Assembly: GCF_003334785.1 (NCBI RefSeq)
Contig: NZ_QOWV01000040.1
Reading direction: 5' to 3' (one strand)
DNA length: 5,816 nt
Source: Escherichia coli
Lineage (GTDB): Bacteria > Pseudomonadota > Gammaproteobacteria > Enterobacterales > Enterobacteriaceae
The position numbers were made by a program, and so were the translations under genes. Below, in pieces: positions 1 to 607 of the stretch. Below the pieces are notes generated by a model. The model saw only the letters and a program-made list of their open reading frames with translations. It had not been told where the DNA came from and did no database searches. The stretch's first letter is position 1, and the number at the start of each line of letters is the position of its first letter.

Positions 1-34
1 TGAATCAGGAGAGCAGATTACCCCCTGGATCTGA

Positions 35-607
35 TTTCAGGCGTTGGGTGTGGATCACTATTGCACCGTTCGTGACATACCGGAGCGAATGATTACGATG
101 GGTATGAATGCCGATCTTATTTGCGATGCGCAATTACTGATTGGGATGATCAGCCAGCGCCTTGTACCAACTCTGTGTCCCTCCTGCCGTATTCCATGGG
201 AAAAGCGAGTACCTGAACTTAGCGACGACGAGCGTGATTACCTTGAGCGGCACTGCAATAAAGATTCACTCTGCAGTACAGATAATATCTGGTTCCGAAA
301 TCCTCACGGATGCTCTGAATGTAATCACGACGTAATCATTAACGGCAGAAAGCGCGGTGAAATAGGTAAAGGCCTCACCGGCAGGACTGTAATTGCTGAG
401 GTGATAGAACCTGATAACCGCTTATTTCAGATTCTGAAAACACGCGGCAAAGTTGCAGCACGTAAATACTGGCTGGAAAACATGAAAGGCATCAGTCGTG
501 TAGAGCATCTTCTTCGCCGTATCAATGAAGGTCTGGTAGACCCTCTTGAAGCCGACAGAATCATCCCTCTGGACGAAGACGAGCGCCTCAGCATCGATGA
601 TGTCTAA
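35..607 (+). CDS. pilQ: C-terminal part of a GspE/PilB-family type IV pilus assembly ATPase (PilQ-like). The N-terminal body lies upstream of the window, and this frame is closed by TGA at 32-34.
   Basis: The translation carries a tetracysteine motif typical of the GspE C-terminal zinc-binding domain: CPSC then, 41 residues later, CSEC. It is followed by GLTGRTVIAEVIEPD, resembling the conserved G-R-x-G-I-x-E motif after the second CxxC, and preceded by DHYC...RMITMG, resembling the His-box/LxxMG region. Stop TAA at 605-607. The ORF track starts it at TTG 44. Confidence 0.78.
   Translation, partial: FQALGVDHYCTVRDIPERMITMGMNADLICDAQLLIGMISQRLVPTLCPSCRIPWEKRVPELSDDERDYLERHCNKDSLCSTDNIWFRNPHGCSECNHDVIINGRKRGEIGKGLTGRTVIAEVIEPDNRLFQILKTRGKVAARKYWLENMKGISRVEHLLRRINEGLVDPLEADRIIPLDEDERLSIDDV

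Follow-up and report, generated by a model that had tools for sequence, protein, structure and literature searches.

The window (the whole stretch of DNA analysed, 5,816 bases) carried the end of an insertion sequence followed by part of an IncI1-type pil/tra locus, and opened with tgaatcagga gagcagatta ccccctggat ctgatttcag gcgttgggtg. The features discussed below were:

L001 7969-8991 (window base 1 is L001 9001), minus strand: istA, annotated, 1,023 bp, 340 aa
1-77, minus strand: left end of IS100 (IS21 family), nt 77 to 1 of the element in antisense, covering its terminal inverted repeat and the untranslated stretch 5' of istA
44-607, plus strand: chimeric open reading frame (ORF) of 187 aa, 11 IS100 codons (44-76) fused in frame to 176 pilQ codons
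77..78: IS100/pilQ breakpoint; base 77 (A) fits both sides, and the join lies between 76 and 77 or between 77 and 78, at the boundary of pilQ codons 341 and 342
77-607, plus strand: 3' remnant of pilQ, codons 342-517 plus stop; thin-pilus (type IVb) assembly ATPase of IncI1 plasmids
90-92, plus strand: TGA in frame 3, within pilQ sequence and out of the pilQ frame
620-1717, plus strand: pilR, full length
1735-2349, plus strand: pilS, full length
2359-2919, plus strand: pilT, full length
2904-3560, plus strand: pilU, full length

Results

IS100 terminus at the start of the window

Every coordinate given by the initial annotation, which had read the window start as a possible frame disruption of an ATPase gene, was present in the translations: a TGA at 32-34 in the frame of the 187-aa ORF (frame 2), the ORF itself from TTG 44 to 607, frame 3 without stops from the window edge until TGA 90-92, and a run of five C at 21-25. 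Every ORF has an in-frame stop upstream of it, and by our own calculation 29 successive codons without a stop would occur in a given alternative frame with a probability of about (61/64)^29 = 0.25. The stop pattern near the window start has no statistical weight; the informative feature is the abrupt end of pilQ similarity at base 77.

Window 1-77 was identical to IS100 of Yersinia pestis pPCP1 at 76 of 77 positions, and aligned without differences to IS100 in the Escherichia coli FORC_031 and 30EVA2 chromosomes. The two E. coli chromosomal copies were inserted in yfbK-like and DUF2254 genes, and all three independent copies, in their different contexts, parted from the window right after base 77. 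Base 77 was also where nearly all IS100 matches listed for the plasmid collection ended. On its own strand the element started with TGTCACGAACGG... (TGT...). Matches to IS100 that reached about base 93 in E. coli chromosomes were considered as a longer element end and rejected, the alignment showing a chance extension. The TGA at 32-34, the C5 run and TTG 44 all lay inside the terminal stretch 1-77, and therefore belong to the IS100 leader and not to the ATPase gene; the C5 run was canonical IS100 sequence and no homopolymer error.

The istA transposase gene, on the opposite strand, started 10 nt beyond window base 1, with the same spacing as in pPCP1 (element nt 87). This copy of IS100 was incomplete: it comprised element nt 1-1243 only, and so lacked the right inverted repeat and most of the helper ATPase gene istB. 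RefSeq annotated istB as a partial pseudogene, and no further piece of IS100 was found in the 94-kb plasmid.

IS100 broke off at nt 1243 (L001 7835, 1,166 bp before the window starts), and what adjoined it there was the flank of a type VI secretion (T6SS) cluster. The junction of truncated IS100 and T6SS flank recurred in the sister plasmid NZ_CP069544.1, in which the start of istA was additionally cut by IS1203 and no pil genes were annotated in the inspected 7-kb flank. A 128-bp piece of the T6SS/IS100 junction was common to several other T6SS plasmids, where IS21 was inserted beside the junction piece.

Breakpoint and pilQ remnant

The breakpoint was set by a three-way comparison of the window, R64 pilQ and pPCP1 IS100. 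Window 77-4016 was 99.1% identical to R64 with no gap, from the opening base of codon 342 (out of 517) of pilQ onward, and within the pilQ remnant the differences from R64 were 2 nt and 2 aa. With 3,940 bp aligned gap-free, the indel sequencing errors that had been considered earlier are excluded. No likeness to PilQ was found in any frame of window 1-76, and PilQ residues 300-341, sought upstream in any frame, were not found. A tblastn search of window 1-200 with PilQ gave a frame-2 match from the junction onward only, and the rest had E values of at least 0.2.

The first 11 residues of the 187-aa ORF were unrelated to PilQ when aligned with the PilQ C-terminus, and the ORF start is a chance by-product of the join that does not mark where a gene begins. 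The TGA at 90-92, identical in R64, closed a chance frame that crossed the IS100 end. What had been proposed as the ATPase frame, open to 90-92, was the antisense, non-coding IS100 leader followed by out-of-frame pilQ, and the scenario that would have spoken against a disruption, a complete ATPase gene ending at 90-92, was not present either.

Intact R64 PilQ is spanned by the Pfam model T2SSE (PF00437) at residues 86-464; its Walker A motif, GPTGSGKS, is at residues 232-239, upstream of the breakpoint. We take its His box, read by eye, to be residues 324-336 (AQTGHIVLTTLHT), and its Asp box and Walker B, likewise placed by eye, presumably lie between Walker A and the His box. A Walker A motif (GxxGxGK[ST]) was absent from the pilQ remnant, which begins at residue 342, as were the Asp box, Walker B and the His box, nothing 5' of residue 342 being retained. 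The remnant kept the tetracysteine region, CPSC and CSEC (R64 residues 375-378 and 420-423), which aligned to residues 371-509 of BfpD (the pilus ATPase of enteropathogenic E. coli, 534 aa) and to EpsE 277-345; from what is known of the family, this CPSC...CSEC region presumably binds zinc. The ORF covered T2SSE model positions 248-335 of 370 only (E = 7e-10), in agreement with its description in the initial annotation as a C-terminal, non-functional piece of an ATPase.

The 5' part of pilQ was absent from the 94-kb plasmid, as had been suspected for the N-terminal body of the ATPase: R64 pilL through pilQ codon 341 gave no blastn matches, and tblastn with the N-terminal 341 residues of PilQ gave only short P-loop-type stretches at 70,153-71,394. 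These lay inside the T6SS ATPase gene tssH, and an inversion or a simple insertion that left the missing pilQ half elsewhere in the plasmid was rejected on the same searches. An older RefSeq annotation labelled the 187-aa ORF a hypothetical protein, and the current one gives window 74-607 as a pseudogene, 'ATPase, T2SS/T4P/T4SS family; incomplete; missing N-terminus'.

Remainder of the pil/tra locus

No internal stops were found in pilR, pilS, pilT or pilU, and each differed from R64 by 2-7 aa. These four genes were intact, and the genes on both sides of them were destroyed. The apparent split of pilV, taken in the initial annotation for a possible second frame disruption, was a 3,975-bp deletion relative to R64 at window 4015-4016, which fused codon 152 of pilV to traE sequence about 67 nt into that gene. 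The join sat in a short A-run (GGCAAAA / AAACTC), and the deletion took out the recombinase gene rci, the entire shufflon and the C-terminus of pilV. The pilV/traE junction was present in 1 of 72,556 plasmid records. The annotated 'TraE' (WP_235836899.1; window 3975-4772) was itself a chimeric ORF, its first codons derived from pilV and out of the pilV frame; its annotated start at 3975 was ATT, and the first canonical start after a stop in that frame was TTG 3990. A single-nucleotide insertion relative to R64 at 4793, in the A-run of the non-coding traE-traF spacer, was the sole indel in the aligned parts.

The traF gene (1,203 bp in R64) was cut after 869 bp, at 5726/5727, by an end of ISCro1 (IS66 family; GTAAGCG from 5727), and the window was bounded by two different IS ends, IS100 and ISCro1. 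Both pilV and traF were marked as partial pseudogenes (RefSeq). In the annotation tables inspected, traE and the truncated traF were all that was left of the IncI1 transfer region. The words 'Twelve pil genes are required' reportedly stand in the title of Yoshida et al. 1999, as cited in PMC4288162, and the twelve are taken here as pilK-pilV of the R64-type thin pilus. The full R64-type set was not present: pilR, pilS, pilT and pilU only were intact, pilQ and pilV were truncated, and pilL-pilP were absent. The decaying pil locus that the initial annotation had considered is borne out.

Plasmid context

Over all of its 5,816 bases the window matched E. coli plasmid pWP7-S17-ESBL-04_2 (NZ_AP022179.1) at 100% identity. 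When window 1-1200 was searched by megablast in a set of 72,556 plasmids, NZ_AP022179.1 was the one match over the full length, again at 100% identity; the remaining matches listed were IncI1-type plasmids, including R64, and all started at query base 77. The IS100-pilQ junction was present in 1 of the 72,556 plasmid records and in 1 of 5,426 complete E. coli genomes, and a second copy of it, sought in both collections, was not found. The plasmid was an IS-crowded mosaic with an IncF replicon, the virulence genes eatA and astA (EAST1), CS22-like fimbriae and a T6SS cluster, and its IncI1 backbone scraps were nikA, nikB and the pil/tra remnant only.

Discussion

Origin of the junction

The best explanation, and a very probable one, is that an IS100 end came to lie in the pilQ gene of an IncI1-type backbone, with the left end of the element at codon 342, that the sequence upstream was lost from the replicon, and that a promoterless 3' pseudogene stub remains. 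Gone from the 5' side of the breakpoint are the promoter region of the operon, pilL-pilP and codons 1-341 of pilQ. The stub codes only for the tail of the C-terminal domain, and its frame stays open for 11 extra codons into IS100, until TGA 32-34, by chance. In the first event the IS100 end would have been joined to pilQ, by insertion or by an IS100-mediated fusion of replicons, the possible partners being an IncI1 plasmid and an IncF virulence plasmid with a T6SS cluster. Later deletions would then have taken away the remaining half of pilQ and cut IS100 itself back to nt 1243. The data show what both sides of the junction are, where exactly the breakpoint lies and that the 5' part is absent from the plasmid; we infer at least two events in the history of the locus, in this order. 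Since the right end of IS100 is missing and no target-site duplication can be demonstrated, a simple insertion looks the same here as an IS-mediated fusion or an adjacent deletion. The occurrence of the junction in a single plasmid record counts against this explanation.

The frameshift reading of the initial annotation, by which pilQ would run on upstream in another frame, displaced by a single-nucleotide indel (real or a homopolymer error) somewhere in 35-92, is refuted by the alignments and has a negligible probability. In its favour were the C5 run and the lack of a stop in frame 3 before 90-92, but at each offset from -4 to +4 window 1-76 and the R64 pilQ bases directly 5' of the breakpoint shared 12-23 identities in 76, which is chance level. 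The tblastn result for the other frames, the match of bases 1-77 (C5 run included) to canonical IS100 and the absence of gaps from the R64 alignment likewise argue against it. That the long-read assembly was wrongly joined across a repeated IS element is very unlikely, even with IS100 being multicopy in E. coli (3,061 of 5,426 genomes matching, at a median of 2 places), the junction being unique to NZ_AP022179.1 and the plasmid being packed with IS elements. A misjoin at a repeat swaps flanks and makes no new end-to-target junction, whereas the join here coincided with the outermost nucleotide of IS100, just as in a real transposition product, and NZ_CP069544.1 independently carried the same truncated IS100 beside the same T6SS flank. 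Moreover, NZ_AP022179.1 was deposited as a complete circular sequence, assembled from long reads at more than 100-fold (Flye, Racon) and polished with Illumina reads (Pilon) (PMC9598598).

That the stub is expressed as a stand-alone zinc-binding protein and has taken on its own function, for instance through a hybrid promoter formed by the IS100 end and pilQ, is scarcely probable. The whole nucleotide-binding core is missing from it, the junction occurred in a single record, and nothing suggests selection. A sigma-70-like site did span the junction at 72-99 (GTGACA in the IS100 terminus, 16 nt, TACGAT in pilQ; 9 of 12 matches), in-frame ATGs lay at 89, 98 and 104, and the older RefSeq label was that of a hypothetical protein; but one such site was found in a scan of 1-700 and the mean for shuffled sequence was 1.0, so the site is probably meaningless. 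With the IS100 end in pilQ and the 5' part lost remaining the preferred reading, the locus is a decaying IncI1 remnant and not a product of indel errors.

Consequences for the thin pilus

The R64 pil genes encode a type IV thin pilus needed for conjugation in liquid medium (PMC4288162; PMC3984277). As the ATPase is truncated and pilL-pilP are absent, the IncI1 thin pilus could presumably not be built from this locus. There is a very small chance that the intact pilR-pilS-pilT-pilU were kept for a role without an ATPase and secretin of their own, for example as pilin, platform and peptidase parts for another type IV pilus of the host, with the junction as promoter. In transposon sequencing of pESBL (IncI-type), transfer on solid medium required pilRSTUV, and the list of essential genes did not include the pil genes upstream of them (PMC4288162), a hint that the pilR-pilU genes can act apart from the rest. 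Retention of pilR-pilU is probably incidental, because traE and the truncated traF only were annotated from the IncI1 transfer region.

The pil and tra genes of this plasmid would thus be debris, left over from a long-past fusion of an IncI1 backbone with an IncF virulence plasmid that carried a T6SS cluster. The significance goes little beyond correct annotation, of pilQ as a 5'-truncated pseudogene beside an IS100 end. In raw sequence, the boundary of an IS element can be mistaken for a frameshift when the stretch at hand takes in only a few dozen of the element's bases.

Comparison with known systems

The IS100 copy of the window was like those of Y. pestis plasmids and E. coli chromosomes in its terminal 77 nt and in the position of istA at element nt 87; it differed from them by the loss beyond nt 1243 and by its joining to the T6SS flank. 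Compared with R64 pilQ (NC_005014.1; 517 aa, GspE/PilB family), the remnant shared the reading frame, the stop and the downstream order pilR-pilS-pilT-pilU-pilV, but had lost the first 341 codons, and with them Walker A and the entire N-terminal domain, and had the IS100 terminus in their place. The window copy of pilQ is an ordinary IS-truncated, 5'-truncated pseudogene, already annotated so in the public record. It shared with the IS-truncated pseudogenes of mosaic virulence and resistance plasmids the exact cut at the IS terminus and the loss of the partner fragment, and its neighbouring genes were likewise cut by IS elements or deleted, as in that class; nothing set it apart from that class, and its junction was simply one that occurred in a single plasmid record.
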